Below are positions 5,555 to 55,739 of a stretch of DNA of 62,957 nucleotides, one piece after another. A program made the position numbers and the translations under genes. Source of the stretch: Bacteroidales bacterium (GTDB lineage: Bacteria; Bacteroidota; Bacteroidia; Bacteroidales; UBA4417); NCBI GenBank assembly GCA_038212135.1, contig JBBQUX010000004.1:1-62957 (forward strand). The letters are read 5' to 3'. Every line of letters begins with the position of its first letter. Positions within the stretch are counted from its first letter, which is position 1. The notes below the pieces were generated by a model, which was not told the origin of the DNA, searched no databases, and worked only from the letters and a program-made list of their open reading frames with translations.

Positions 5555-6205
5555 TTACTGGCCAGCCAATAGCTTGACTATGGTTTCTTTTGGATCAACA
5601 GATGCGAAAACAGTATTTCCTGCCACAAGCACATCAACTCCTGTTTGAATTAATTTACCGGCATTTGCGAGATCAACACCTCCGTCCACTTCAATACGGA
5701 TTTTTTTGCCTGTTGCCTGTATCATTTGCTTTAAGGCAGTGATTTTGTTATAGGTATTTTCAATAAATTTCTGTCCTCCAAAGCCAGGATTTACTGACAT
5801 CAGCAGAACCAGATCAAGATCAGGCAGAATTTCGGATAACACATTTACAGGAGTGTGAGGATTGAGAACAACGCCTGCTTTCATTCCAAGTTCGTGTATC
5901 AGGGCAACTGAACGGTGAATATGCACAGATGCTTCGTAATGAAAAGTCAGGATATCAGCACCAGCATCGCGGAAAGCTTCAAAGTATCGTTCCGGCTGAA
6001 CGATCATCAGGTGAACATCAAGAAGCTTTGAGGTTGCTTTCCGAACAGCTTTTACAATCGGAATGCCATATGAAATGTTTGGTACGAAAACACCATCCAT
6101 AACATCAATATGAATCCATTCAGCCATGCTGGTGTTGATCATTTCAATGTCGTTGCCAAGATGCAGGAAATTGGCCGATAATAAGGAAGGAGCAATGATT
6201 GGCAT
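5555..6205 (-). CDS. rpe: Ribulose-phosphate 3-epimerase
   Basis: IAPSLLSA, HIDVMDGVFVPN, DVHLM, MSVNPGFGGQ, EVDGG. Confidence 0.97.
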   Translation of the reverse strand: MPIIAPSLLSANFLHLGNDIEMINTSMAEWIHIDVMDGVFVPNISYGIPIVKAVRKATSKLLDVHLMIVQPERYFEAFRDAGADILTFHYEASVHIHRSVALIHELGMKAGVVLNPHTPVNVLSEILPDLDLVLLMSVNPGFGGQKFIENTYNKITALKQMIQATGKKIRIEVDGGVDLANAGKLIQTGVDVLVAGNTVFASVDPKETIVKLLAGQ

Positions 6206-6308: not shown

Positions 6309-7172
6309 TTAACCAAGGTAGGTTTTTAATATTTTACTTCTTGCAGTATGTTTGAGCCTGCGGATGGCTTTTTCTTTGATTTGTCGAACACGCTCGCGGG
6401 TGAGATCGAATTTTTCGCCGATTTCTTCCAGTGTGTAAGGATGACTGCCGTTGAGTCCGAAATATAGTTTGATAACATCAGCTTCGCGAGGCGTCAAAGT
6501 AGAAATAGCACGGTCAATTTCCTTACGGAGTGATTCGTAAAGCAGGCCTGTTTCAGGTGTAGGACCATCATCACTGCGCAGAACATCATACATGGTGTTG
6601 TCTTCGTCCTGAATGAGAGGAGCATCCATCGATACATGACGGCCGCTGTTACGCATTGATTCTTTTACTTCATTCTCGCTTATTTCGAGCAATGTAGCAA
6701 TCTCATCGCTGTTAGGTTCGCGTTCGTATTCCTGTTCGAGTTTCGCGTACGCTTTGTTGATTTTATTGATGGCACCGATTTTGTTTAGCGGAAGCCTCAC
6801 AATACGCGATTGTTCAGCCAAAGCCTGTAGAATCGACTGACGGATCCACCAAACTGCGTAGGAAATAAACTTAAATCCACGGGTTTCATCGAAACGCTGG
6901 GCTGCCTTTATTAGTCCGAGGTTTCCTTCGTTGATAAGGTCGGGCAAGCTGAGACCCTGGTTTTGGTATTGTTTTGAAACAGATACAACAAAGCGAAGAT
7001 TAGCCTTTGTGAGTTTTTCGAGTGCCGCACGGTCGCCTTGCTTGATTCGCTGTGCGAGCTGGACTTCTTCCTCAGCTGTAATCAGTTCTACTTTACCGAT
7101 TTCCTGCAGGTATTTGTCCAGCGAAGCGGGGTCGCGGTGAGTGACTAGTTTTGTTATATTGAGTTGCCTCAT
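6309..7172 (-). CDS. rpoD: RNA polymerase primary sigma factor (Bacteroidota SigA/RpoD type, no region 1.1)
   Basis: MRQLxIT start, [55 protein letters not shown]; 287 aa. Confidence 0.93.
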
Positions 7173-21060: not shown

Positions 21061-21074
21061 CAAATTTCGTGCCA
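21061..21074 (-). promoter_or_regulatory. Sigma54 (-24/-12) promoter for the lipoprotein gene
   Basis: Minus strand TGGCACG-AAAT-TTG, about 95 bp upstream of ATG 20968. Confidence 0.65.
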
Positions 21075-41108: not shown

Positions 41109-41672
41109 TCAACTAATCAAGTTATTGATAAGAGCATAAAGCGTAAGGCCGGATATGGTTTTTATTTCGAGTTTCCGGCAAATGTTCTTCCTATGTGAGA
41201 TTACTGTATGCAAACTGATTGATAAATAATCAGCAGTTTCTTTGTTGCTGTTACCCATTGCAACAAGTTTGAGAACTTCTTTTTCACGAGTTGAAAGTTC
41301 AGTGGGTTCTACTTTTTTTATAGGAAGAGCTGGAAAAATAGTATTCAGTTTCTTTTGAATAGCTGATAAATTGTCATTTATACACAAAACGCCATCATAA
41401 GAGATAGGTTGAAAAGATGCATCAAGACTAACTGTTATCAGGTAGACAGAATTTCCTTTTTGTTTAAGTTTTGCCAACATATTTTCGCTTGCATACATCA
41501 GTTCAGCGTCCAAAAAAAGTATTGCATTCTTTAAGCTAGATATTTGATTAACAAGTGAATAATCAACTATGAAATCCGAAACGGAAACATTGCATATATG
41601 CAAAAGCAAGTCAGCCAAACCTTTTTGAATTATGGCAGAGCAATGAATGATTACTACCTTTTGCTTACCCAT
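41109..41672 (-). CDS. LuxR C-terminal HTH transcriptional regulator
   Basis: LSTREKEVLKLVAMGNSNKETADYLSISLHTVISHRKNI. Confidence 0.9.
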   Translation of the reverse strand: MGKQKVVIIHCSAIIQKGLADLLLHICNVSVSDFIVDYSLVNQISSLKNAILFLDAELMYASENMLAKLKQKGNSVYLITVSLDASFQPISYDGVLCINDNLSAIQKKLNTIFPALPIKKVEPTELSTREKEVLKLVAMGNSNKETADYLSISLHTVISHRKNICRKLEIKTISGLTLYALINNLIS

Positions 41673-41673
41673 T

Positions 41674-42363
41674 TCATTCAGGCTTGTGTTTTAACAACTT
41701 TATAAGTTTCGGAATCAGAATCTTGTCCTCAAATCGCGCATGGTCAAGAAGTTCCTGTTCAAAGCGTGAAAGCTCAAACAACAGTTCATTGGCCGAATTT
41801 TCATTTACCTCCAGGGGAAGAAATTTTATCAGTATGGTTTTCAAATCGCTGAGTTTATCCTCAACATTTAAATGTTCATGCTGAATCTTGTCAGAATAAT
41901 AATTTGACTTTTCGGGAATATTTATCTGCTTATTTAAAATTTTAACAATTAATGGAAAAAGTTCAGTTTCTTCGTAATCAATATGTATTGTCAGTTGTTT
42001 TTTATATTCAAAATAATATGATTCAATCATTGCCAGTGGCTTATTTCCGGGGCATTCAGTTGAAAGTTCGGCTAGAAGATTTTCAATACGGGGCAGCGTG
42101 TACTTCAGGTAATACGTATGAGTTTGTTTCAAAAAATTAACCAGCAAATTGATTTCGACTTCTTCCGGTTTTGGGAAATATTCCTGACTGTTATACGTGT
42201 TAAGAATCGCAAGAAATGTTTTTAACTCAATTCCGTTTTGACTGCATAATGTCTTTAACGTTTTTTCGCCAACACCTGGTTTTATTCCAAACCGGTTTAA
42301 AACAGGAATCAGAAGTATATTCTGCCCGATAATGTCGGACATTTTCATGCTTTCGGTGATCAT
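41674..42363 (-). CDS. Hemerythrin-like domain protein (Ric/ScdA-like N-terminus)
   Basis: RFGI..G.GEKT...C, H.YYL, HIDYEE..LFP, EH..VEDKL, HARFEDKILIP. Confidence 0.85.
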   Translation of the reverse strand: MITESMKMSDIIGQNILLIPVLNRFGIKPGVGEKTLKTLCSQNGIELKTFLAILNTYNSQEYFPKPEEVEINLLVNFLKQTHTYYLKYTLPRIENLLAELSTECPGNKPLAMIESYYFEYKKQLTIHIDYEETELFPLIVKILNKQINIPEKSNYYSDKIQHEHLNVEDKLSDLKTILIKFLPLEVNENSANELLFELSRFEQELLDHARFEDKILIPKLIKLLKHKPE

Positions 42364-44653: not shown

Positions 44654-44759
44654 TGTTGAGAAATACATCAGGTGTATAAAAAATATACAATATGCCTTAA
44701 GCGGTTGGAAAATAGAGTCTTGTAGGCTATATATAAAAATAGTGTATAAATATTCAACA
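44654..44759. promoter_or_regulatory. Candidate upstream activator sites (TGT-N11-ACA) for a sigma54 enhancer-binding protein
   Basis: TGTATAAAAAATATACA (44673-44689) and TGTATAAATATTCAACA (44743-44759), each preceded by a degenerate copy (44654, 44721). Confidence 0.55.
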
Positions 44760-44823
44760 TAGACTTGTGTATTATTTATTCAAACATACCTATAAAGTAA
44801 TGAAAATCAGTATTATATAATCG

Positions 44824-44839
44824 TGGCATTGTTATTGGA
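44824..44839 (+). promoter_or_regulatory. Sigma54 (-24/-12) promoter of the 44876-49461 operon
   Basis: TGGCATT-GTTA-TTGGA with correct spacing (GG rather than GC at -12), ending about 37 bp before the ATG. Confidence 0.6.
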
Positions 44840-44875
44840 TAGCAAAATGTATTATGAATTGAAATCCTCGAAATC

Positions 44876-46558
44876 ATGAAAGCAACATTCTATTTAATCA
44901 TCGGATTCTTACTGCTCTTCGCCACAAGTAGCATAAGCAGTCAAGAAATTACAAGCAAGAATACTAACTTGCAGACAGGATCAGTGTGTATCAAGTGTAC
45001 TCCTGACCTATATGAACTTACTTCTAAATGGGCCAGTGAATTTAGTAGCCTTAACCCGGAAGTGAAAATAAATGTATCTGAAGCAGACTTTGGGAGTACC
45101 GGTTTTGGAACGGGCGGGAGCCTGGGTTTTATTTCCGGCAAAGCCACGTCTGCAATCAGTAATGAATCAAACTGGAAAATGGTAGTAGGCCGCGATGTGG
45201 TTGTAGCTATTATGAATACAGAAAACCCGTTTTCGGCTGAAGTGAATAAACGAGGGATAGCGCAGGAGCAGCTTGCCCAAATGCTCATTAACCCGCAAAA
45301 GCGGAATTGGGGAGCAATGCTTGTTAACAGCCTTGCTGAACCTGTTCATATTTATATAGTAAATGATGAAACCGTTAAAGCCTGCCTGGCTAAGTTTATA
45401 AACAAAAGCAGCATCGAGTTTACGGGGATTACAGTTAGCAACAGGGACGAAGTTATTTCGGCTATTCAGAAAGACCCCTACGCTATCGGCTTTTGTGCAT
45501 TAGTTAACATTATGAATGAAAGTGACCAGGATTTAGCCGGTAATGTGACGTTATTACCAATTGACAAAAACAGAAATGGCACACTCGATTATATGGAAAA
45601 TATTTATACTGATCTCAATACTTTTCAACGTGGGGTTTGGATAGGGAAATACCCAAAATCACTTGTCAGCAATGTTTATGCTGTCAGTAGTGCTCAACCT
45701 GCAAACGAAAACGAACTGGAATTTCTGAAATGGGTAATTTCCGAAGGTCAGCAATATATGAATGCTAATGGTTACTGCGAACTGGTGGGCAGCGAGAGCC
45801 AGGCACAACTTGATAAGTTAACTATAGCTTCGGTAAATGTATCGCCGGTAAAAGATGCCTCACAAGCTGGCACTGTGTTACTTATTCTGGCTTTTGTTCT
45901 GGTTGCTGGTTTGGTGATCACTGCGGTAGTCCGGAACTACAGAAAGCAAAAAAATATAGCACCGGATTTTAATGTTTCACAGACGGGCTTTTCAGAAGAC
46001 ACCGTAATTCTTCCAAACGGTTTATATTTCGACAAGTCGCACACCTGGTCCTTTATGGAAAAAGACGGAAATATAACGGTAGGGGTTGATGATTTTCTGC
46101 AACATATTACCGGTCCGGTAACCCGCATTGAAATGAAAAGCCCGGGTGAAACTATCAGGAAAGGAGATGTGCTTTTTTCAATCATTCAATTTGGGAAACA
46201 ACTGAATATATACGCTCCTTTTTCGGGAATTATTAAAAAGCAAAATGTTAATCTTCTTTCTGATTCGTCGGTTATTAATTCGTCTCCTTATGAAGCAGGC
46301 TGGGTATATAGAATTGAGCCTTCAAACTGGATTAAAGAAGTTCAGTTAATGGATTTATCAGAAAAGTATCGTAGATGGCTTGGAGCCGAATTTATTAGGC
46401 TCAAAGAATTTATGACAGCAATTCTCAGACCGGAGAGTCTCGAATCTGCTCACGTTGTGCTTCAGGACGGTGGTGAATTGAAAGAAGGAGTCCTGGGAGA
46501 TTTCGGGCCAAAAGTGTGGGAAGATTTTCAGACAAACTTCCTTGATACTTTTAAATAG
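44876..46558 (+). CDS. PstS-like periplasmic binding domain + TM helix + cytoplasmic GcvH-like domain
   Basis: Signal peptide; WASEF...NPEVKINV, VGRDVVVAIMN, VISAIQKDPYAIGF, EFLKWVISEGQ (PBP type 2); TM at about aa 331-352; GLYFDKSHTW, VGVDDF, YAPFSG, INSSPYEAGW (H-protein fold). Confidence 0.8.
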   Translation: MKATFYLIIGFLLLFATSSISSQEITSKNTNLQTGSVCIKCTPDLYELTSKWASEFSSLNPEVKINVSEADFGSTGFGTGGSLGFISGKATSAISNESNWKMVVGRDVVVAIMNTENPFSAEVNKRGIAQEQLAQMLINPQKRNWGAMLVNSLAEPVHIYIVNDETVKACLAKFINKSSIEFTGITVSNRDEVISAIQKDPYAIGFCALVNIMNESDQDLAGNVTLLPIDKNRNGTLDYMENIYTDLNTFQRGVWIGKYPKSLVSNVYAVSSAQPANENELEFLKWVISEGQQYMNANGYCELVGSESQAQLDKLTIASVNVSPVKDASQAGTVLLILAFVLVAGLVITAVVRNYRKQKNIAPDFNVSQTGFSEDTVILPNGLYFDKSHTWSFMEKDGNITVGVDDFLQHITGPVTRIEMKSPGETIRKGDVLFSIIQFGKQLNIYAPFSGIIKKQNVNLLSDSSVINSSPYEAGWVYRIEPSNWIKEVQLMDLSEKYRRWLGAEFIRLKEFMTAILRPESLESAHVVLQDGGELKEGVLGDFGPKVWEDFQTNFLDTFK

Positions 46559-46613
46559 AAGATAAGTATATCATCTGTTCTGACCTAATTTTTAACCAAT
46601 TGAAACCAGAATC

Positions 46614-47480
46614 ATGGATCTGAATCGACGAAGTTTTTTTAAAGTAATGGGTGCAACCGGATTAACTCTCGCAGTTGGTAAGGACATGGATGCATCACCG
46701 AAACCCACCAAAGATAAAGAATTCTATGGCGTTTTATATGACTCGGCTCGCTGCAAGGGATGCCGGGGTTGCGAATACGATTGCGCCGAAGCTAACGGTT
46801 TGCCTGAGCCGCTTCCCAACAAAGAAATCAAAGGCTTGCGTAAGCCGGATGACAAGCATCGTACGGTTGTAAACGAATATAAAACATCAAAAGGAATAGT
46901 TTACGCCAAAATGCAGTGTATGCATTGCAACGAACCCGCCTGTGCGGCCGCCTGCCTCACGCAGGCTATGTGTAAAACCAAAGACGGTCCGGTTATCTGG
47001 AGGGCCGACAAATGTATGGGCTGCAGGTACTGCATGGTTTCGTGCCCGTTCGATATCCCAAAATTCGAATACCACAGTGCAAACCCTAAGATTGAAAAAT
47101 GTACCATGTGTTTCGAAACCAGGGTACAAAAGGGGGAACTGCCGGCTTGCGTGGAAAATTGTCCGAATGAGGCACTGATGTTTGGTACACGCCGCGAACT
47201 GATAACCGAAGCACGCCGGAGAATTTACGAAAAGCCGGATGAATATGTTGATCACATTTATGGTGAACATGAAGCCGGAGGAACTTGTTGGCTGCATATT
47301 TCACCGGTGCCGTTTAATGAACTGGGAATGAAATCAGTACAAACTGAATCGTACCCGGCATTGACAAAAGGATTCTTATACACCGTGCCGTCTGTGTTTG
47401 TGCTTGTTCCAGCATTGTTGTTAGGAATCCAGCAAGCAACCAAAAAGAATAACCTTAACGAAGATACCGAAGATGAATAA
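46614..47480 (+). CDS. Tat-exported 4x[4Fe-4S] protein, HybA/HmcB/DmsB type, with C-terminal TM anchor
   Basis: NRRSFFK; CxxCxxCxxxC, CMHCNEPACAAAC, CMGCRYCMVSCP, KCTMC...PACVENCP; IYGEHEAGGT. Confidence 0.9.
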   Translation: MDLNRRSFFKVMGATGLTLAVGKDMDASPKPTKDKEFYGVLYDSARCKGCRGCEYDCAEANGLPEPLPNKEIKGLRKPDDKHRTVVNEYKTSKGIVYAKMQCMHCNEPACAAACLTQAMCKTKDGPVIWRADKCMGCRYCMVSCPFDIPKFEYHSANPKIEKCTMCFETRVQKGELPACVENCPNEALMFGTRRELITEARRRIYEKPDEYVDHIYGEHEAGGTCWLHISPVPFNELGMKSVQTESYPALTKGFLYTVPSVFVLVPALLLGIQQATKKNNLNEDTEDE

Positions 47481-48735
47481 CAGGACCTTACTAGCCGCAG
47501 ATAACGATGGGAAATCCATCTGTAAGTTCCTGTTACGGGAACTGAAACCAAAAGGAAAGGCATTTACCCCTTTTAACATCATCTCTGTACCAATTATTCT
47601 TTTAGGCATAGTGTTGATTGTTTACCGTTTTATTCATGGAATCGGGGCAATTACAAATCTTTCGCAGGAAATCCCCTGGGGATTATGGATAGGATTTGAT
47701 GTGGTTACAGGCGTTGCTTTTGCCGGTGGTGCTTATGTGCTTACATTCATGGTTTACATCCTCAATATGAAAAAGTACCACTCCATTGTAAGAGTTACAG
47801 TGTTGAATGGTTTCCTTGCCTACCTGTTTTATGCAGGTGCTTTATTGCTCGATCTGGGGCGCCCATGGAATGTAATAAACCCAATTATTGGGAATAACTT
47901 TGGTGTAAGTTCAGTCCTATTCCTCGTAGCATGGCATTTTCTTTTGTATATGATTGCACAACTCATTGAATTTTCGCCTGCTATTGCCGAATGGCTTGGT
48001 GCCAGGCGGGCGCATAAAATTCTTTCAGGAATGACTCTGGCAGCTGTAATTTTTGGTATAACGCTGTCAATGCTTCACCAATCAGGATTAGGTGCGTTGT
48101 TCCTGATGGCGAAAGAAAAGATACACCCGCTGTGGTACAACGAATTTATACCGATCATGTTTTTCGTTTCCAGCATATTTGCCGGACTCTCCATGGTGAT
48201 TTTCGAAGGTTCCATCAGCCATAAAGTGTTCTCGAATCAGATCACTGATAAAAACCATAAGGCGCATAAAGGGATTGTTCACGGTTTAGCTAAAATATGT
48301 ACAGCAACACTTTTTGTGTATTTTTTCCTGCAAGTGCTGGTATTTCTTCATGGCAAACACTGGGATTTAATCAATACACCAATGGGTTACTGGTTCCTTG
48401 TCGAAATGCTCGGATTTGTGCTTGTGCCCATGATACTCTTTTTCTATAGTTTCCGCACAAGCAATAACTTTATGATCAGGCTGGCAGCACTTCTCACAAT
48501 GCTGGGTGTAATAATTAACAGGCTGAATGTTACTGTGATTGGTTTCAGATGGGATGCAGCTGTGCATTATGTCCCATCCTGGATGGAAATTGTAGTGACC
48601 CTCACTGTATTGTTTACTGAAATCTGGATTTTCAGGTGGGTAATCAACCGCATGCCTGTATTACGCGAATCACCTAAATGGGTAAATGAAACTAAAACTC
48701 AACAAGCTTTCGGAAAAGATAGTCTGAGGGCATAA
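47473..48735 (+). CDS. NrfD/PsrC-family integral membrane protein (HybB/HmcC type)
   Basis: TNLS..PWGLWIGFDV, DLGRPW, SMLHQSGLG, IHPLW, NRLNV, YVPSWMEI. Confidence 0.9.
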   Translation: MNNRTLLAADNDGKSICKFLLRELKPKGKAFTPFNIISVPIILLGIVLIVYRFIHGIGAITNLSQEIPWGLWIGFDVVTGVAFAGGAYVLTFMVYILNMKKYHSIVRVTVLNGFLAYLFYAGALLLDLGRPWNVINPIIGNNFGVSSVLFLVAWHFLLYMIAQLIEFSPAIAEWLGARRAHKILSGMTLAAVIFGITLSMLHQSGLGALFLMAKEKIHPLWYNEFIPIMFFVSSIFAGLSMVIFEGSISHKVFSNQITDKNHKAHKGIVHGLAKICTATLFVYFFLQVLVFLHGKHWDLINTPMGYWFLVEMLGFVLVPMILFFYSFRTSNNFMIRLAALLTMLGVIINRLNVTVIGFRWDAAVHYVPSWMEIVVTLTVLFTEIWIFRWVINRMPVLRESPKWVNETKTQQAFGKDSLRA

Positions 48736-48747
48736 AAAAACAATAAA

Positions 48748-49461
48748 ATGGACGGATTCACTTATACTAATATCTTTGATACAAAAGGAATTGAATACCT
48801 GATTGTTATTGCTTTCCTTTTGTTGCTCATCCCTTTCTGGCTGGCATTGAACAAGCGGGTAAAAACAAGGGAGAGGATACATAAAGCGTTGGGAGTGCTT
48901 TCTGCGAGTATGTTGCGGATTCCGCAAGGCATATTTTATAGCAAAAATCACACCTGGGCTTACCTTGAGAAATCGGGAGTGGCAAGGATCGGGCTGGATG
49001 ATCTTTTACTCCATATCACAGGCGAAGTGAGTGTAAGCCATTGTAAAAGCCCTGGCGAAACAGTAAAAAAAGGAGATTTACTGGCAGAAATTGATCATAA
49101 AGGAAAGTCGCTGAACATTTATTCTCCTATTTCCGGGGAGGTAATAAGTGCTAACTCCGTACTAAGTGTGAACCGGGAATTGCTGAACGCGGATCCCTAC
49201 GGAAATGGCTGGATTTATAACATTAAACCTTCTGACTGGGTAGCCGAAATCTCTTCGCTTTTCCTGGCAGGCAATGCAACAGACTGGTTAAAAAGAGAAC
49301 TGGTCAGGTACAAAGATTTTCTGGCTATGAGTATGCCAAAATATTCGCCCGAAACTTCGATGGTAATGCTTCAGGATGGAGGTGAACTGGTAGAAAATTC
49401 ACTATCGGAAATGCCACAGGAAATATGGCAGGATTTTCAAAAGGAATTTCTAACTCCATAA
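48748..49461 (+). CDS. Membrane-anchored GcvH-like protein
   Basis: IFDTKGIEYL then one TM; GIFYSKNHTW, RIGLDD, YSPISG, NADPYGNGW, LQDGGEL. Confidence 0.85.
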   Translation: MDGFTYTNIFDTKGIEYLIVIAFLLLLIPFWLALNKRVKTRERIHKALGVLSASMLRIPQGIFYSKNHTWAYLEKSGVARIGLDDLLLHITGEVSVSHCKSPGETVKKGDLLAEIDHKGKSLNIYSPISGEVISANSVLSVNRELLNADPYGNGWIYNIKPSDWVAEISSLFLAGNATDWLKRELVRYKDFLAMSMPKYSPETSMVMLQDGGELVENSLSEMPQEIWQDFQKEFLTP

Positions 49462-49493
49462 TATGATCCGGACAGGCCGGAACCTGAAAGGTT

Positions 49494-49667
49494 GAAAAGT
49501 CAAAAAAGCAAAGATCAAAAAGCAAAGATCAAAAAGATTGTTAAGAGAGTAACATATTTTAAAGTAAAACGAAAACAACTTTTCCTGAAAACAACTCTTT
49601 TAATAGCACAAGTATGAATATTTTGAATGACCAGAACTTTGAACTTTGAATTTTGCATTTTGAATTA
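49494..49667. repeat. Heptamer-periodic inverted repeat downstream of the operon
   Basis: Left AAAAGTCAAAAAAGCAAAGATCAAAAAGCAAAGATCAAAAAG; right ACTTTGAACTTTGAATTTTGCATTTTGAATT. Confidence 0.55.
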
Positions 49668-49811: not shown

Positions 49812-49840
49812 AAAAACCGGTTAATTATCGCCGGTTTTTT
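49812..49840. terminator. Terminator-like hairpin upstream of the kinase
   Basis: AAAAACCGG...CCGGTTTTTT. Confidence 0.55.
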
Positions 49841-49936: not shown

Positions 49937-51607
49937 ATGGTTTTCATTAAGAAACAGAAAGAGCAAAAGAGTTTTGTACGTACTTTCTTAGGAAAATACC
50001 TCAAATTCGGACGATCCATCTATGGGCGGGTTGTGCTCATTATCACCATATTGTCTGTATTCCTGTTTGTATCGTTTGGTATTATTTTCCGTTCAGTTTA
50101 TGAGCAATACCTCAATACAGTTATTCTGCAAAGCGGAAACAATGTTGGTTCGCTGGTTGAAGGTGCTCTATCTCATTCAATGCTCGAAAATGACAAAGGC
50201 GCACTTCAGTATACACTTGATGTCATCCATACCATGCCTGGTATTGAGGATGTGAATATGTACGACAGCGATGACAGCCTGGTATATTCCTCTTTCCCTG
50301 CTGATACTTCCGGCCATTTCAATGCCAATTGTAAGGGATGCCACGCTGATATCGGCACGATGTTCCCAAAGCATGAAAAGTCGTATAAAATCATTACGGC
50401 CGAAAGTGAGTGTAAAATGAGCAAGAATACTAAAGGCCAAAGGCACCTTTTGATACGATCGCCGATTCTGAATTCGAAATCATGCTACGAAAGCAATTGT
50501 CATGCTCACGGTCCCAAAGAAAAAGTGTTAGGTTCACTCGTTATAAAAGTACCGTTGAAAGATTTTGATGCAGCGGTACAAAAGTCGTCGGTCGAATTTT
50601 ACCTGCTGGCTATTTTTACTACTATACTTCTGGCTTCCTTTCTGATTTTATTTACGCGGCGTGAGATTAAAAAACCATTAAATAAACTTATTGAAGCAAG
50701 CATTGCTGTAGCGGACGGAGATAAAAGCACTCGTGTAGAAATACGCCCCAACCAACTCGACGATATGCGTATGGTTTCGGTTGCATTTAACGATATGCTC
50801 GATAACCTACAGACAGCAACCACTGAACTCGAAAACTGGTCGCAACAGCTTGAATACAAGGTACAGAAAAAATCGGAAGAATTGGGTGCAGCCCAGAATG
50901 AACTGATGCATATTGAGAGGCTGGCTTCGCTCGGGAAATTATCGTCATCGGTTGCGCACGAAATCAATAATCCTTTATCAGGGATATTGGTTTATACCAA
51001 GCTTGTTCACAAGCAATTAAGCAATCCTGATCTTACTCCCGAAAAAAAAGAACTTATGCTTAAGCACCTGAAACTCATTGAAAACGAAACCAAACGCTGC
51101 GGCGATATTGTAAAAGGTCTTCTCGATTTCTCCAAAAAGGATCAGGAAGATTTTGAACCATTACATTTGCATACTATTTTGCAGGATACAGCCGATTTAA
51201 TGTCACATTCCATCAAAATCGCCGATGTAAAGTTTACTAAGGAATTCTCAGCCAAATCCGACCTCGTATATTGCAGCCCGAACCAGGTGAAGCAGGCGTG
51301 CATGGCCATTCTTGTAAATGCAACCGAGGCCATTACTGAAAATGGAGAAATTGTTGTGCGTACTTCGAATCCCGATCCCGATACTATCAACCTCGAAATC
51401 ATTGATAACGGCATAGGAATTGCCCCGGAAGATATCCCGCATATTTTCGAGCCCTTCTTTTCGACCAAGCAGGAAGTGCGTGGTATAGGGCTGGGACTAT
51501 CCATCGCCCATGGAATTATTCAAAGCCACAAAGGGAAAATCCAGGTGAGATCCGAACCCGGTCTTGGTACCACGATTTCGATAACATTACCTTTAATCAG
51601 AAGTTAA
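49937..51607 (+). CDS. Sensor histidine kinase (2 TM, HAMP, HisKA, HATPase) with periplasmic CxxCH and CxxxxCH motifs
   Basis: CKGCH and CYESNCH between the TMs; AHEINNPL, NATEA, DNGIG, FEPFFSTK, GIGLGLSI. Confidence 0.93.
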   Translation: MVFIKKQKEQKSFVRTFLGKYLKFGRSIYGRVVLIITILSVFLFVSFGIIFRSVYEQYLNTVILQSGNNVGSLVEGALSHSMLENDKGALQYTLDVIHTMPGIEDVNMYDSDDSLVYSSFPADTSGHFNANCKGCHADIGTMFPKHEKSYKIITAESECKMSKNTKGQRHLLIRSPILNSKSCYESNCHAHGPKEKVLGSLVIKVPLKDFDAAVQKSSVEFYLLAIFTTILLASFLILFTRREIKKPLNKLIEASIAVADGDKSTRVEIRPNQLDDMRMVSVAFNDMLDNLQTATTELENWSQQLEYKVQKKSEELGAAQNELMHIERLASLGKLSSSVAHEINNPLSGILVYTKLVHKQLSNPDLTPEKKELMLKHLKLIENETKRCGDIVKGLLDFSKKDQEDFEPLHLHTILQDTADLMSHSIKIADVKFTKEFSAKSDLVYCSPNQVKQACMAILVNATEAITENGEIVVRTSNPDPDTINLEIIDNGIGIAPEDIPHIFEPFFSTKQEVRGIGLGLSIAHGIIQSHKGKIQVRSEPGLGTTISITLPLIRS

Positions 51608-51618
51608 AGTGCCTAATC

Positions 51619-52956
51619 ATGGAGAAAAAAATATCAATACTTATTGTTGATGATGAAGAATCAGTCAGGGATTCGCTGAACAGCTGGTTTGTCGAAGACG
51701 GGTACCGTGTGGAATGTGCCGAAGATGCGAAGAAAGCGTTATCGATTCTCGAAGCCGGTAATTTCGACATTATCCTGGCCGATATTAAAATGCCTGGCAT
51801 GGACGGACTGGAAATGCTGCGCCGGATCAAAGCACTGAATAAGGAATCGATAGTAATTATCATGACGGCATTTGCCACAGTTGATACAGCCGTGAAGGCA
51901 TTGAAGGATGGAGCCTTTGATTATGTTACAAAACCTTTCGATCCTGACGACCTTTCGCACCTGATCCGCAATGCATCCAAGCAGATTTCGCTGTACCACG
52001 AAAATGAAACCTTAAAGAAAAGGGTAGATTCACTCGAAAGTGTCGAAGATTTGATTGGCAAAAGCGAAGCCATCAAAAAAGTATTACGTGAAGTTGAAAG
52101 TGTTGCCCCTACGAATTCATCTGTTATAATAACCGGCGAAAGCGGCACAGGTAAAGAACTTGTTGCCAGGGCTATACATGCTAATTCGCTGCGAAAATTT
52201 TATCCTTTGGTGAGTGTTCATTGCGGTGCCCTCACTGAAAGTTTGCTCGAAAGTGAGCTGTTCGGACACGAAAAGGGTGCTTTTACAGGAGCAATGTACA
52301 ACCGTAAGGGCCGTTTCGAAATGGCTGACTGCGGTTCTATTTTCCTGGATGAAATTGCTACTATTTCCACTAAAATGCAGATTGAACTCTTACGCGTTCT
52401 GGAGACCAAAAGTTTTATGAGGGTTGGCGGGAATAAGGAAATTACTTCTGATTTCAGGGTGATTTGTGCCACAAACCGCGATCTGAAAAGCATGGTCGAA
52501 AAAGGAACTTTCCGCGAGGACCTGTATTACCGGTTAAATGTGATGAATATTCATGTACCTCCATTGCGCGAACGTGTGGAGGATATTCCATTACTGGTTG
52601 AGTATTTCATCAGGAAGTATTGTACCTCTATGAACCGGCCGCTTATCACTGTCGATGCACCGGCTCTGAAACGGATGCTCGACTACGCGTTTCCGGGCAA
52701 CATCCGCGAATTGGAGAATATGGTGGAACGTGCTATTGTTGTTGGCAATGGTAAAAAAATAATGCTGAAAGATCTGCCTCTGGCTAAAGATGTTGTTGAT
52801 AGTTCCATTGAGAGTCTGGATGATTTTGAAAAAGCATTTATCCTTCAGATCCTGAACAAATACAGCTGGAATATCTCCCGCACCGCTACAGCACTGAAGG
52901 TTGACAGGGTGACACTGTACAACAAGATTAAGAAGTATGGGTTGAAACCGAAATGA
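51619..52956 (+). CDS. NtrC-family sigma54-dependent response regulator
   Basis: REC (VDDE, DIKMPGMDG, KPF), GESGTGKE, GAFTGA, FLDEI, FREDLYYRL, PGNIRELEN, Fis-type HTH. Confidence 0.96.
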   Translation: MEKKISILIVDDEESVRDSLNSWFVEDGYRVECAEDAKKALSILEAGNFDIILADIKMPGMDGLEMLRRIKALNKESIVIIMTAFATVDTAVKALKDGAFDYVTKPFDPDDLSHLIRNASKQISLYHENETLKKRVDSLESVEDLIGKSEAIKKVLREVESVAPTNSSVIITGESGTGKELVARAIHANSLRKFYPLVSVHCGALTESLLESELFGHEKGAFTGAMYNRKGRFEMADCGSIFLDEIATISTKMQIELLRVLETKSFMRVGGNKEITSDFRVICATNRDLKSMVEKGTFREDLYYRLNVMNIHVPPLRERVEDIPLLVEYFIRKYCTSMNRPLITVDAPALKRMLDYAFPGNIRELENMVERAIVVGNGKKIMLKDLPLAKDVVDSSIESLDDFEKAFILQILNKYSWNISRTATALKVDRVTLYNKIKKYGLKPK

Positions 52957-53031: not shown

Positions 53032-53565
53032 ATGGATCATCCAACTATAACTATAGTATCATTTGCACATCTCAGGAGGGGATTTCTTGAGAAGCTCAGT
53101 GCGGATGTTCAGCATCAACTGCAAAGCCAGGTGTTGATAAAAGAGATGCACCTCGATTTAAGTGAATATTTTGACGCCGGACGCAGGCAATACAATGGTG
53201 ATAAATTGCTGAAAGCGGTTGATCAGTTTGATTTTCCTAATTCTGATAAGACTATTGCCTTAGTTAATGTTGACCTTTTTATTCCTATACTAACCTATAT
53301 TTTCGGGCAGGCACAATTAGGAGGCCGTACAGGTATTGCTTCCATATACCGCCTTAGCAACGAGCGCTACGGGATTTCGGATGGCGATAATTTCCTGCTG
53401 CAACGGTTCACTAAAGAAGTGATTCATGAACTGGGTCATTTATTCGGGTTAATTCACTGCCACACACCCACCTGTGTAATGCGCTCAAGCACCTACGTGG
53501 AGGATATCGATCAGAAGGGAATGGGGCTTTGTTCCAAATGCAGGTACGAATTGAAGCTGGATTAA
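53032..53565 (+). CDS. Archaemetzincin (M54) zinc metalloprotease
   Basis: RRQY, DLFIPILTYIFG, HELGHLFGLIHC...CVM...C..C. Confidence 0.92.
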   Translation: MDHPTITIVSFAHLRRGFLEKLSADVQHQLQSQVLIKEMHLDLSEYFDAGRRQYNGDKLLKAVDQFDFPNSDKTIALVNVDLFIPILTYIFGQAQLGGRTGIASIYRLSNERYGISDGDNFLLQRFTKEVIHELGHLFGLIHCHTPTCVMRSSTYVEDIDQKGMGLCSKCRYELKLD

Positions 53566-54689: not shown

Positions 54690-55739
54690 TTATTGATTGT
54701 CATCCGTATAAACCCTGTTCTCCTGTTCAGCTACACGAATAAAAGTTGTCCGCTTGGTAAGTTCTTTCAGTTGCGATGCTCCCACATAGGTACAGGTACT
54801 GCGAATGCCGCCCAAAATATCGAGCAAGGTATTTTCAACCTGTCCACGGTAAGGAACTTCAACAGTTTTACCTTCGCTGGCGCGGTAATCGGCAACTCCG
54901 CCTGCATGCTTGTCCATGGCAGTGGTAGAACTCATTCCGTAAAACTGTTTCAGTTTTTTACCGTTTTTTTCAATAATGTCACCACTACTTTCGTCGTGCC
55001 CCGCCAGCATACCTCCCAGCATTACAAAGTCAGCACCTGCTCCGAAAGCTTTTGCTACATCGCCTGGTGTAGTGCACCCGCCGTCGCTGATGATCTGGCC
55101 ACCCAGTCCGTGAGCTGCATCGGCACACTCAATAATGGCTGAAAGCTGAGGGTAGCCGACGCCCGTTTTCACGCGCGTGGTGCAAACCGAACCCGGTCCG
55201 ATACCTACTTTAATAATGTCGGCACCAGCCAGTAAAAGCTCTTCAACCATTTCGCCTGTAACAACATTGCCGGCAATGATCACTTTATCGTGAAATTTTT
55301 TCCTGGTTTGTTTCACAAAAGCTACAAAATGTTCGGAATACCCATTGGCCACATCTATACATAAAAACCGCAACTGTGGGTTAGCAAGGATAACTTTACT
55401 GATTTTATCTAAGTCGTGCGATCCTGTGCCAGTACTCAATGCAATGTGGTTTTCGATTCCTTTAGGTGCTTTGCTTAAAAAATCAGTCCACTCTTCAACT
55501 GTATAATGTTTATGAACTGCAGTGAATAATTTCTTTTCATACAAGGCCAATGCCATTTCGAAAGTGCCTACCGTATCCATATTGGCTGCCATTACCGGAA
55601 TTCCGGTCCATTCGGAATTGCTGTGTTTAAGGCGGAACGTACGTTCGAGTTTTACCAGCGAACGGCTGCTCAGCGTCGAGCGTTTCGGCCTGAACATCAC
55701 ATCTTTAAATCCTAATTTTATTTCATATTCTATTCGCAT
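54690..55739 (-). CDS. guaC: GMP reductase (type 1)
   Basis: [46 protein letters not shown]. Confidence 0.97.

Follow-up and report, generated by a model that had tools for sequence, protein, structure and literature searches.

A PstS-fold and H-protein-fold fusion in Bacteroidales, a possible adaptor between an HmcBC-like module and a haem-motif sensor kinase

The window analysed here, a stretch of 62,957 nucleotides from a Bacteroidales bacterium (GenBank assembly GCA_038212135.1, contig JBBQUX010000004.1), encodes a protein, P0001, in which a domain with the fold of the phosphate-binding protein PstS is joined through a single transmembrane (TM) helix to a domain with the fold of the glycine cleavage H protein (GcvH). 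Its gene heads a conserved cluster that also encodes an iron–sulphur (FeS) protein and an NrfD-family membrane protein resembling HmcB and HmcC, a shorter paralog of P0001, a histidine kinase, a sigma-54-dependent regulator and an archaemetzincin-family protease. We tentatively favour the reading that P0001, a type-I one-pass inner-membrane protein, acts as a non-catalytic adaptor shared by two partners: an HmcBC-type module linked to the quinones, and the redox-sensing two-component system encoded next to P0001. We arrive at an adaptor with two roles because a membrane-anchored H-like partner seems necessary for the HmcBC-like pair, the fusion can do without the pair, and the fusion, kinase, regulator and protease travel together. 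The features of the fusion gene are as follows.

44876–46558, + strand: fusion gene P0001, an open reading frame (ORF) with exactly these bounds, 560 amino acids (Pfam, structure model, Foldseek)
44876–44944, + strand: signal-peptide-like N-terminus, residues 1–23 (hydropathy, hydrophobic at 3–21; model helix 2–20 and low-confidence linker 22–32)
44972–45835, + strand: PstS-fold ectodomain with degenerate phosphate-ligand segments, residues 33–320 (Pfam, Foldseek, alignments)
45563–45598, + strand: EF-hand-like loop D230-x-N-x-N-G-x-x-D-x-x-E241 (alignments; calcium binding suggested by the motif alone)
45869–45934, + strand: TM helix, residues 332–353, followed by RNYRKQK (sequence, model, hydropathy)
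46016–46360, + strand: cytoplasmic H-protein-fold domain, residues 381–495 (Pfam, Foldseek, GcvH alignments)
46193–46198, + strand: hairpin G440–K441, with glycine at the canonical lipoyl-lysine position and a near-invariant lysine at +1 (alignments; model turn 439–440)
46361–46555, + strand: family-specific C-terminal tail, residues 496–560, with LQDGGEL and W-x-DFQ-x-x-F, common to the paralog (alignments; no Pfam family)

The order of these parts, a signal-like segment, an ectodomain, a single TM helix and a cytoplasmic H-like domain, is supported by sequence and model because Kyte–Doolittle windows give two hydrophobic segments (residues 3–21, signal-like, and 334–352, TM) and basic residues follow the second. 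Lysine and arginine are enriched C-terminal of the TM helix in 33 of 37 relatives of P0001 and in 52 of 53 paralog rows. The AlphaFold2 model, built with 105 relatives, has a mean pLDDT of 86.6 and comprises two well-folded domains and a long helix at 330–357; in the sequence itself, RNYRKQK follows the TM segment. This topology comes from hydropathy and the model; the signal-like segment is a prediction. The receptor-like, one-pass arrangement that the original prediction had proposed therefore stands, as do the two domains that it had named. Pfam places PBP_like_2, a periplasmic-binding-protein (PBP) family, at residues 33–290, marginally above its cut-off (28.1 bits against 27), and GCV_H at 383–496 (80.1 bits against 22.2). 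Compared with the PDB by Foldseek, the N-terminal domain of the model matches PstS-type phosphate-binding proteins (E 3e-15 to 4jwo; TM-score at most 0.73, normalised to 1twy), so that the PBP fold outside is confirmed, and the C-terminal domain superposes on H-proteins with a TM-score of 0.94 and an rmsd of 1.1–1.3 Å.

The conserved cluster

The gene is present in 69 species-level genomes, nearly all of them Bacteroidota by name. Only seven families are conserved over the 69 loci, in the order fusion, HmcB/HybA-like FeS protein, HmcC/HybB-like NrfD protein, paralog without the PBP-type domain, kinase, sigma-54 regulator and archaemetzincin (some loci have more than one kinase), and the flanks vary. 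In the window this cluster consists, besides the fusion gene, of the following features.

44824–44839, + strand: sigma-54-type promoter-like element, TGGCAT-N5-TTGGA, 52 nt before the start codon of P0001
46614–47480, + strand: HmcB/HybA-like protein with a twin-arginine translocation (Tat) signal (RRSFFK), four [4Fe-4S] motifs and a C-terminal TM helix
47473–48735, + strand: HmcC/HybB-like NrfD-family membrane protein with about 10 hydrophobic segments
48748–49461, + strand: PBP-less paralog of 237 amino acids, with TM helix, H-like domain and the same tail (38% identity to fusion residues 335–557)
49812–49839, + strand: terminator-like hairpin between the four-gene unit and the kinase gene (top-scoring in the region; number of such sites not above chance)
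49937–51607, + strand: histidine kinase with a PAS/PDC-like periplasmic domain and invariant CxxCH and CxxxxCH (alignment, model, Foldseek)
51619–52956, + strand: sigma-54-dependent response regulator
53032–53565, + strand: archaemetzincin-family metalloprotease, the last conserved gene of the cluster (156.9 bits, cut-off 145)

The first four genes are spaced by 55 nt, an 8-nt overlap and 12 nt. Among NCBIfam models the FeS protein matches HmcB best (319 bits against a cut-off of 420), with HybA next, and the NrfD protein matches HmcC best (391 bits against 550), with HybB next; in Pfam the NrfD protein reaches NrfD at 47.9 bits against 25.8, and the FeS protein reaches Fer4_11 at 69.5 against 26.2. 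The Hmc-like character that had been claimed for the neighbourhood is thus borne out as a best match, with both scores below the equivalog cut-offs. The FeS protein has 16 invariant cysteines and the RRSFFK Tat motif, and an NrfD membrane protein adjoining a Tat-exported four-cluster ferredoxin qualifies the pair as an NrfD-family module. As also predicted, the cluster has no cytochrome subunit, and none of the families conserved over the 69 related loci is an ABC transporter. Neither a hydrogenase nor a haem-b or HdrD-like subunit is found among the seven conserved families, and in the cluster we see no HmcA multihaem cytochrome, no HmcD, HmcE or HmcF, and no catalytic or electron-input periplasmic subunit. 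A complex prediction with the FeS protein (residues 36–288), the NrfD protein (20–420) and P0001 (33–360), using 37-row alignments, scored 0.00 against a mark of 0.32, a value that is no evidence either way on binding.

Upstream of the fusion gene, a TGGCA[CT]-N5-TTG element lies within 300 nt of the start in 57 of 58 loci, the reverse complement giving 0 and shuffles 0.12 on average. In the window by itself there are 5 sigma-54-type sites where 1.44 are expected and 2 of 100 shuffles reach 5, so a single site is not significant; the other loose matches are at 6055–6068 (−), 6770–6783 (+), 21061–21074 (−) and 55542–55555 (−). A search upstream of the promoter for repeats, as candidate regulator sites, returned only weak AT-rich matches, and sigma-70 and terminator scans were overall not above chance. 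A look for RNA runs that cover 44700–49500 listed none.

The periplasmic part of the kinase (residues 55–215) carries CxxCH, CxxxxCH and C-x-M motifs that are invariant in 63 sequences. Its model is PAS/PDC-like (pLDDT 76), and Foldseek matches it to kinase ectodomains, to GSU0935 (3b42, E 2.7e-5) and to 3b47 (E 8.6e-3); the periplasmic domain of LuxQ in complex with LuxP (2hj9_D) is also among the matches. Pfam reports nothing above threshold for this part, and only a cytochrome family below it (Cytochrome_C554, E 0.019). Since the haem-c motifs are invariant and the model is haem-c-sensor-like, the cytochrome-like element of the cluster sits in the sensor kinase, outside the four-gene operon. 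The best NCBIfam matches of kinase and regulator are AtoS and AtoC, with ZraS and ZraR lower and all below cut-off.

Several variations on the cluster were seen. About 10 of the 69 loci have two tandem kinases; ten loci (L014, L025, L036, L038, L040, L043, L055, L061, L066 and L067), in which two tandem haem-motif kinases precede the regulator, form a divergent sub-group whose FeS and NrfD proteins are 51–59% identical to those of the window. At L062:1150-2795 (two tandem copies) and L064:645-1334 the first gene lacks a PstS-like ectodomain, is in all else of the P0001 type, encodes 229–238 residues and stands before the same FeS, NrfD and paralog genes. The archaemetzincin is cytoplasmic, occupies the same place in at least 42 related loci and is retained where the FeS and NrfD genes are lost; the conserved tails of the H-like proteins are candidate substrates for it. 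A few kilobases upstream of the cluster, at 41109–42363 (−), lie genes for a hemerythrin-domain protein and a LuxR-type regulator that are not conserved with it.

Co-occurrence and the function of P0001

We cross-tabulated by hand the occurrence of the fusion and of HmcC-like proteins (threshold E<=1e-50) in 401 genomes that sample the window's order evenly; in these mostly draft genomes, an absence means not found with the given query. Full-length fusions occur in 44 of them. An HmcC-like match occurs in 49, of which 38 also have the full-length fusion and 7 a P0001-type protein without the PBP domain; the other 4 comprise two fragmentary contigs with partial evidence and two distant homologues (44–48% identity) without a partner. 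When HmcC-like proteins are limited to those at least 55% identical, an H-like partner is seen in 45 of 47 genomes, and the other 2 are on fragmentary contigs. The HmcBC-like pair therefore appears to need a membrane-anchored H-like partner. The ectodomain is optional: genes without the PBP domain take the first position in 7–9 of the 401 genomes, and it is not required by the complex because these PBP-less versions serve the same operon elsewhere.

The dependence does not run the other way. Full-length fusions lack an HmcC-like match in 6 of the 44 genomes, and in 7 of the 69 loci the fusion is directly followed by the kinase, regulator and archaemetzincin. In five genomes with such minimal loci that we searched, no NrfD match was found at E<=1e-5, and no second H-like paralog was found in these genomes except for a remnant in one of them. 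There, at L022:9695-9820, the C-terminus of a paralog stands directly after the fusion and marks a recent deletion that removed the genes for the FeS and NrfD proteins along with most of the paralog. The minimal form is spread over several distinct lineages, three Rikenellaceae species among them, and one genus shows both forms, two of its four genomes being minimal and the other two keeping HmcC. The H-like domain and tail of five full-length minimal loci are 57% and 54% identical to those of the window protein, compared with 59% and 55% in 36 full loci of comparable divergence, and a sigma-54-type site is also present in minimal loci (L022, L024, L050, L051 and L056). The complex is not required by the fusion because the fusion is intact and conserved in genomes without an HmcC-like match. 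The original prediction, in which P0001 gives ligand-gated input to the membrane complex, is hard to sustain in that form: the fusion persists, with undiminished conservation, where the HmcC-like gene is missing, and PBP-less forms serve the same operon.

The reading that we favour would account for these patterns by two partnerships. A copy of a Bacteroidales PstS would have been joined to a membrane-anchored H-like module (TM helix, GcvH fold and 65-residue tail), which also stands by itself as the fourth gene of the operon, and the phosphate site would have been lost since. In most genomes P0001 and the PBP-less paralog would be subunits of an HmcBC/HybAB-type module made up of four proteins and in contact with the quinone pool. 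Their single TM helices would lie against the NrfD-type subunit and their H-like domains on the cytoplasmic face; the ectodomain would take a periplasmic place next to the Tat-exported FeS protein, one occupied in relatives by a cytochrome, a hydrogenase or a molybdoenzyme. In the second partnership, the kinase with its two haem-c motifs would sense the periplasmic redox state, and its sigma-54 regulator would turn on the promoter before P0001. Of this scheme, the anatomy, the descent from PstS with its lost ligand segments, the displaced lysine, the conservation of cluster and promoter and the one-way dependence are observed. We infer the physical contacts, the direction of any electron flow, the signal of the kinase and the type of ligand, small molecule or protein, that the ectodomain would bind.

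Several points weigh against this proposal. The ectodomain is the least conserved part of P0001 (27–83% identity, against 51–94% for the FeS protein), which agrees badly with a constant contact surface on the FeS subunit. Most of the minimal genomes are drafts, and the absence of an HmcC-like gene means that it was not found with this query. No target of the two-component system was found besides its own operon. A redox role is also hard to draw, with no visible electron route to the cytoplasmic H-like domains, because NrfD-type subunits are described as free of redox cofactors in the available text of a review of the family (PMC8076601) and the cluster has no haem-b or HdrD-like subunit.

The strongest alternative, which we judge somewhat unlikely, makes P0001 chiefly a co-sensor or feedback regulator of the kinase and the HmcBC-like genes co-regulated cargo. 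LuxP docks on LuxQ and TorT on TorS, and ZraP feeds back on ZraS; the ectodomain could dock similarly on the PAS-like domain of the kinase, or P0001 could act in a ZraP–ZraS-like feedback. The minimal loci argue for this, as the fusion stays with kinase, regulator and protease, with its conservation undiminished and the sigma-54-type site in place, when FeS, NrfD and paralog genes are missing, and so do the PAS/PDC-like sensor of the kinase and the presence of the LuxQ–LuxP structure among its matches. However, a co-sensor leaves unexplained why the HmcC-like gene has a constant H-like partner and why there are a PBP-less paralog and PBP-less first genes, and a two-component system that targets only its own co-sensor needs further targets, of which we found none.

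A bolder reading, which we think unlikely, would have P0001 represent a new class of one-pass receptor, in which a degenerate solute-binding ectodomain controls an H-fold output domain, possibly lipoylated at a non-canonical lysine, and which would form, with the haem-c kinase, sigma-54 regulator and archaemetzincin, an unrecognised Bacteroidales redox-sensing system able to recruit an HmcBC-type wire to the quinone pool that has no catalytic subunit.

At the other extreme, P0001 could be a purely structural subunit of the HmcBC-like module, in which case loci lacking the FeS and NrfD genes would be decaying remnants. Operon order and spacing fit such a role, as does the constancy of the H-like partner at 55% identity and above, and the paralog remnant at L022 points to recent deletion. 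Decay is nevertheless difficult to reconcile with minimal loci in which the fusion is full-length and its invariant residues are kept, and with the appearance of the minimal form in several lineages, the three Rikenellaceae species and the divided genus among them. We give this alternative only an outside chance.

Fate of the two borrowed folds

The H-like domain retains the H-protein fold and most of the core H-protein motifs in alignments, but it is not a canonical H-protein, as the domain name in the original prediction could suggest, for it is without a lysine at the lipoylation position. A profile alignment to E. coli GcvH and a BLASTP alignment to the genome's own GcvH, both ungapped through the hairpin, place the lipoyl-lysine opposite G440 and the residue after it opposite K441, and the model has its hairpin turn at 439–440. 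All 105 relatives keep G440 and 104 of them keep K441; the corresponding lysine of the paralog is present in 47 of 53 sequences, with arginine in 3 and asparagine in 3. After the fold comes the 65-residue tail with invariant LQDGGEL and W-x-DFQ-x-x-F motifs, and a Pfam scan of the tails of both P0001 and the paralog found no family. A search of the ESM Atlas with residues 330–560 gave only Bacteroidota GCV_H clusters at scores below 0.9, which we treat as leads only. The genome encodes a canonical GcvH of 126 residues elsewhere, and gcvT and gcvP are absent among the conserved neighbours in the 69 loci. Equivalog scores of P0001 fall below the cut-offs for gcvH (TIGR00527, 62.1 against 115.85; NF002270, 75.1 against 117). 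We rejected a true GcvH identity on these scores, on the size and anchoring of the 560-residue protein, GcvH being a small soluble partner of the P-, T- and L-proteins, and on the glycine at the lipoyl-lysine position.

Could the domain nevertheless be lipoylated, at the shifted lysine? Judged from the alignments this is possible but disfavoured, because glycine holds the canonical site, the lysine is at +1 and a +1 lysine is reported to be unmodified: according to the accessible part of PMC6270654, Wallis and Perham (1994) found in a lipoyl domain that only the lysine at the tip of the turn is lipoylated and one at the neighbouring position is not. Lipoylation at K441 would turn the H-like domains into membrane-tethered dithiol/disulfide swinging arms linking cytoplasmic redox chemistry to the quinone-linked module, comparable to LbpA in sHdr sulfur oxidation or to lipoyl proteins in peroxide defence. 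The near-invariance of G440 and K441 and the near-identity of the fold with GcvH agree with this idea, and the domain is predicted to be cytoplasmic, where ligases act; the genome encodes an LplA-type ligase (414 bits, cut-off 280). Besides the glycine and the lipoyl-domain precedent, the arginine or asparagine in 6 of 53 paralogs stands against it. LipA and LipB were not found in the genome, which is only 82% complete. An 'N/D-G-K' turn is, moreover, a common hairpin of purely structural kind. All told, we consider swinging arms decidedly unlikely.

The nearest non-fused relatives of the ectodomain in the 401 genomes are ORFs of about 325 residues, 25–31% identical over residues 5–316, that are true PstS genes: of four such loci fetched, three (L073–L075) were examined, and in each the gene is directly upstream of pstC-, pstA- and pstB-sized ORFs. 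NCBIfam, run on one of the loci, confirmed PstC, PstA and PstB, the last at 336.6 bits, just below its cut-off of 343.2. Compared with these proteins, and with the phosphate-bound structure 4gd5 in a profile alignment, the fusion family has changed all three segments that, by analogy to E. coli PstS, we take to carry the phosphate ligands. SGAF is replaced throughout by [CS][TS]P[DE]; the AGGAGKG loop (AGGAGKG...S(R/K)) is three residues shorter and variable; and x-x-[ND]-[DN]-E-x, one residue shorter, stands in place of TRSDACGA, whose arginine is present in 0 of 57 fusions. Because these segments are replaced or shortened, the ectodomain, PstS in fold, is very unlikely to have a PstS-like phosphate site. 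The original description of a PstS-type binding domain thus survives for the fold and fails for the binding, with a PstS-like pocket unlikely and no ligand indicated. No conserved cysteine or histidine cofactor motif is seen in the family alignment of the ectodomain. A single-sequence search of PDB sequences with the ectodomain reached only E 0.2–0.3, and a profile search was required.

What the lineage did pass on is the EF-hand-like loop. Common in the alignment to the fusion and the three true Bacteroidales PstS proteins, the DxNxNGxxDxxE loop shows, at the level of sequence, inheritance from the Bacteroidales PstS lineage; P228, N232, N234 and E241 are kept in 57 of 57 fusions, making it the best-conserved part of the ectodomain. 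That the true PstS proteins of L073–L075 themselves carry this loop is an observation in its own right, and it suggests a calcium site in the Bacteroidales PstS lineage; we know of no description of such a site, although no search aimed at it was made.

A working phosphate receptor, in which the PstS domain would signal phosphate levels across the membrane, is accordingly very improbable: PstS fold and ancestry and the marginal Pfam match to PBP_like_2 speak for it, but the three ligand segments are lost, with the arginine in none of the 57 fusions, and TIGR02136 scores 32.8 bits against a cut-off of 206.6, as the PstS-family NCBIfam models all fall far below theirs. A true PstS identity was rejected on the same grounds, P0001 having no pstCAB neighbours.

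There is a negligible chance that the gene arose in assembly or through a frameshift joining two genes, since nothing was found in favour of it and both relatives and contigs of other studies speak against it. A word-seeded search gave 1574 relatives at E<=1e-3 (90% clustering), the top 120 of which are about 560 residues long, near full-length and 51–99% identical; the named sources are Bacteroidota, mostly Bacteroidales. In a full HMMER scan of representatives clustered at 50% identity, 346 reached E<=1e-30, the best 150 being full-length with few exceptions. The junction is bridged by contigs of other studies (X2 record 3 covers 45736–46447 with 0 differences, X4 record 8 covers 45591–45952), in which no joints are reported. 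The search for the same architecture elsewhere therefore succeeds, in the 69 genomes and among the top relatives, and we rejected a mis-join unique to this assembly.

Significance and comparison with known systems

Our literature searches, of listings and abstracts, found no publication on the fusion or the cluster. The architecture is present in databases and automatic annotation already names both domains; the name given, 'phosphate ABC transporter substrate-binding protein / glycine cleavage H protein', is likely wrong on both counts and should serve as an annotation warning. Known membrane modules of the NrfD type anchor catalytic or cytochrome subunits. Here such a module is without either, and is accompanied by membrane-tethered H-like proteins; to our knowledge no described complex contains proteins of this kind, and we know of the H-protein fold only as a soluble lipoyl carrier. 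A membrane-anchored H-fold with a shifted lysine, fused to a former PstS, suggests a different use of both folds, and we rate the cluster as an NrfD-type module with unprecedented subunits that puts the PstS and H-protein folds to a new use. Roughly one sampled genome of the order in nine has the fusion; most are of uncultured anaerobes of sediments and fresh water. With a haem-c sensor kinase and a sigma-54 promoter as regulatory handles, the self-contained cluster offers a tractable entry to the membrane and redox physiology of Bacteroidales.

The systems closest to the parts of the cluster each share some traits with it and differ in others. Bacteroidales PstS, the nearest relative of the ectodomain, has in common with it the fold, the level of identity given above, the DxNxNGxxDxxE loop and a G-x-YP motif; P0001, in contrast, is without the phosphate-ligand segments, is not beside pstCAB, and has a C-terminal TM helix as its tether and a cytoplasmic domain as fusion partner. 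GcvH and the H-like carriers LbpA of sHdr and GcvH-L are comparable in that the P0001 domain is nearly identical in fold to solved H-proteins, whereas P0001 is anchored in the membrane, has the additional tail and the glycine at the lipoyl-lysine position, and has no gcvT or gcvP nearby; the likeness to LbpA and GcvH-L draws in part on a preprint (bioRxiv 10.64898/2026.10.01.755906).

The kinase resembles the Geobacter haem-c PAS sensors GSU0935 and GSU0582 in its PAS/PDC-like periplasmic domain, its matches to 3b42 and 3b47 and its CxxCH, and differs from them in having two haem-type motifs, in being a kinase rather than a chemoreceptor and in matching no Pfam family above threshold. LuxP–LuxQ and TorT–TorS also place a binding-protein fold beside a kinase with a PAS-like periplasmic domain, a likeness that comes from gene adjacency and the kinase model; LuxP and TorT are soluble periplasmic proteins, whereas P0001 is anchored and has a cytoplasmic domain. 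The sigma-54 ZraPSR loop has a similar layout, with a sigma-54 promoter before an accessory gene beside kinase and regulator genes.

For the membrane module, the available text of the NrfD-family review (PMC8076601) does not bring up H-protein-like subunits. HmcB–HmcC of the Desulfovibrio Hmc complex and HybA–HybB of E. coli hydrogenase 2 share with the pair described here the Tat signal, the four [4Fe-4S] motifs, the C-terminal anchor and about 10 hydrophobic segments. The Bacteroidales proteins score under every equivalog cut-off, and their cluster, without a multihaem cytochrome, a hydrogenase, or a haem-b or HdrD-like subunit, has two single-pass H-protein-like proteins instead.

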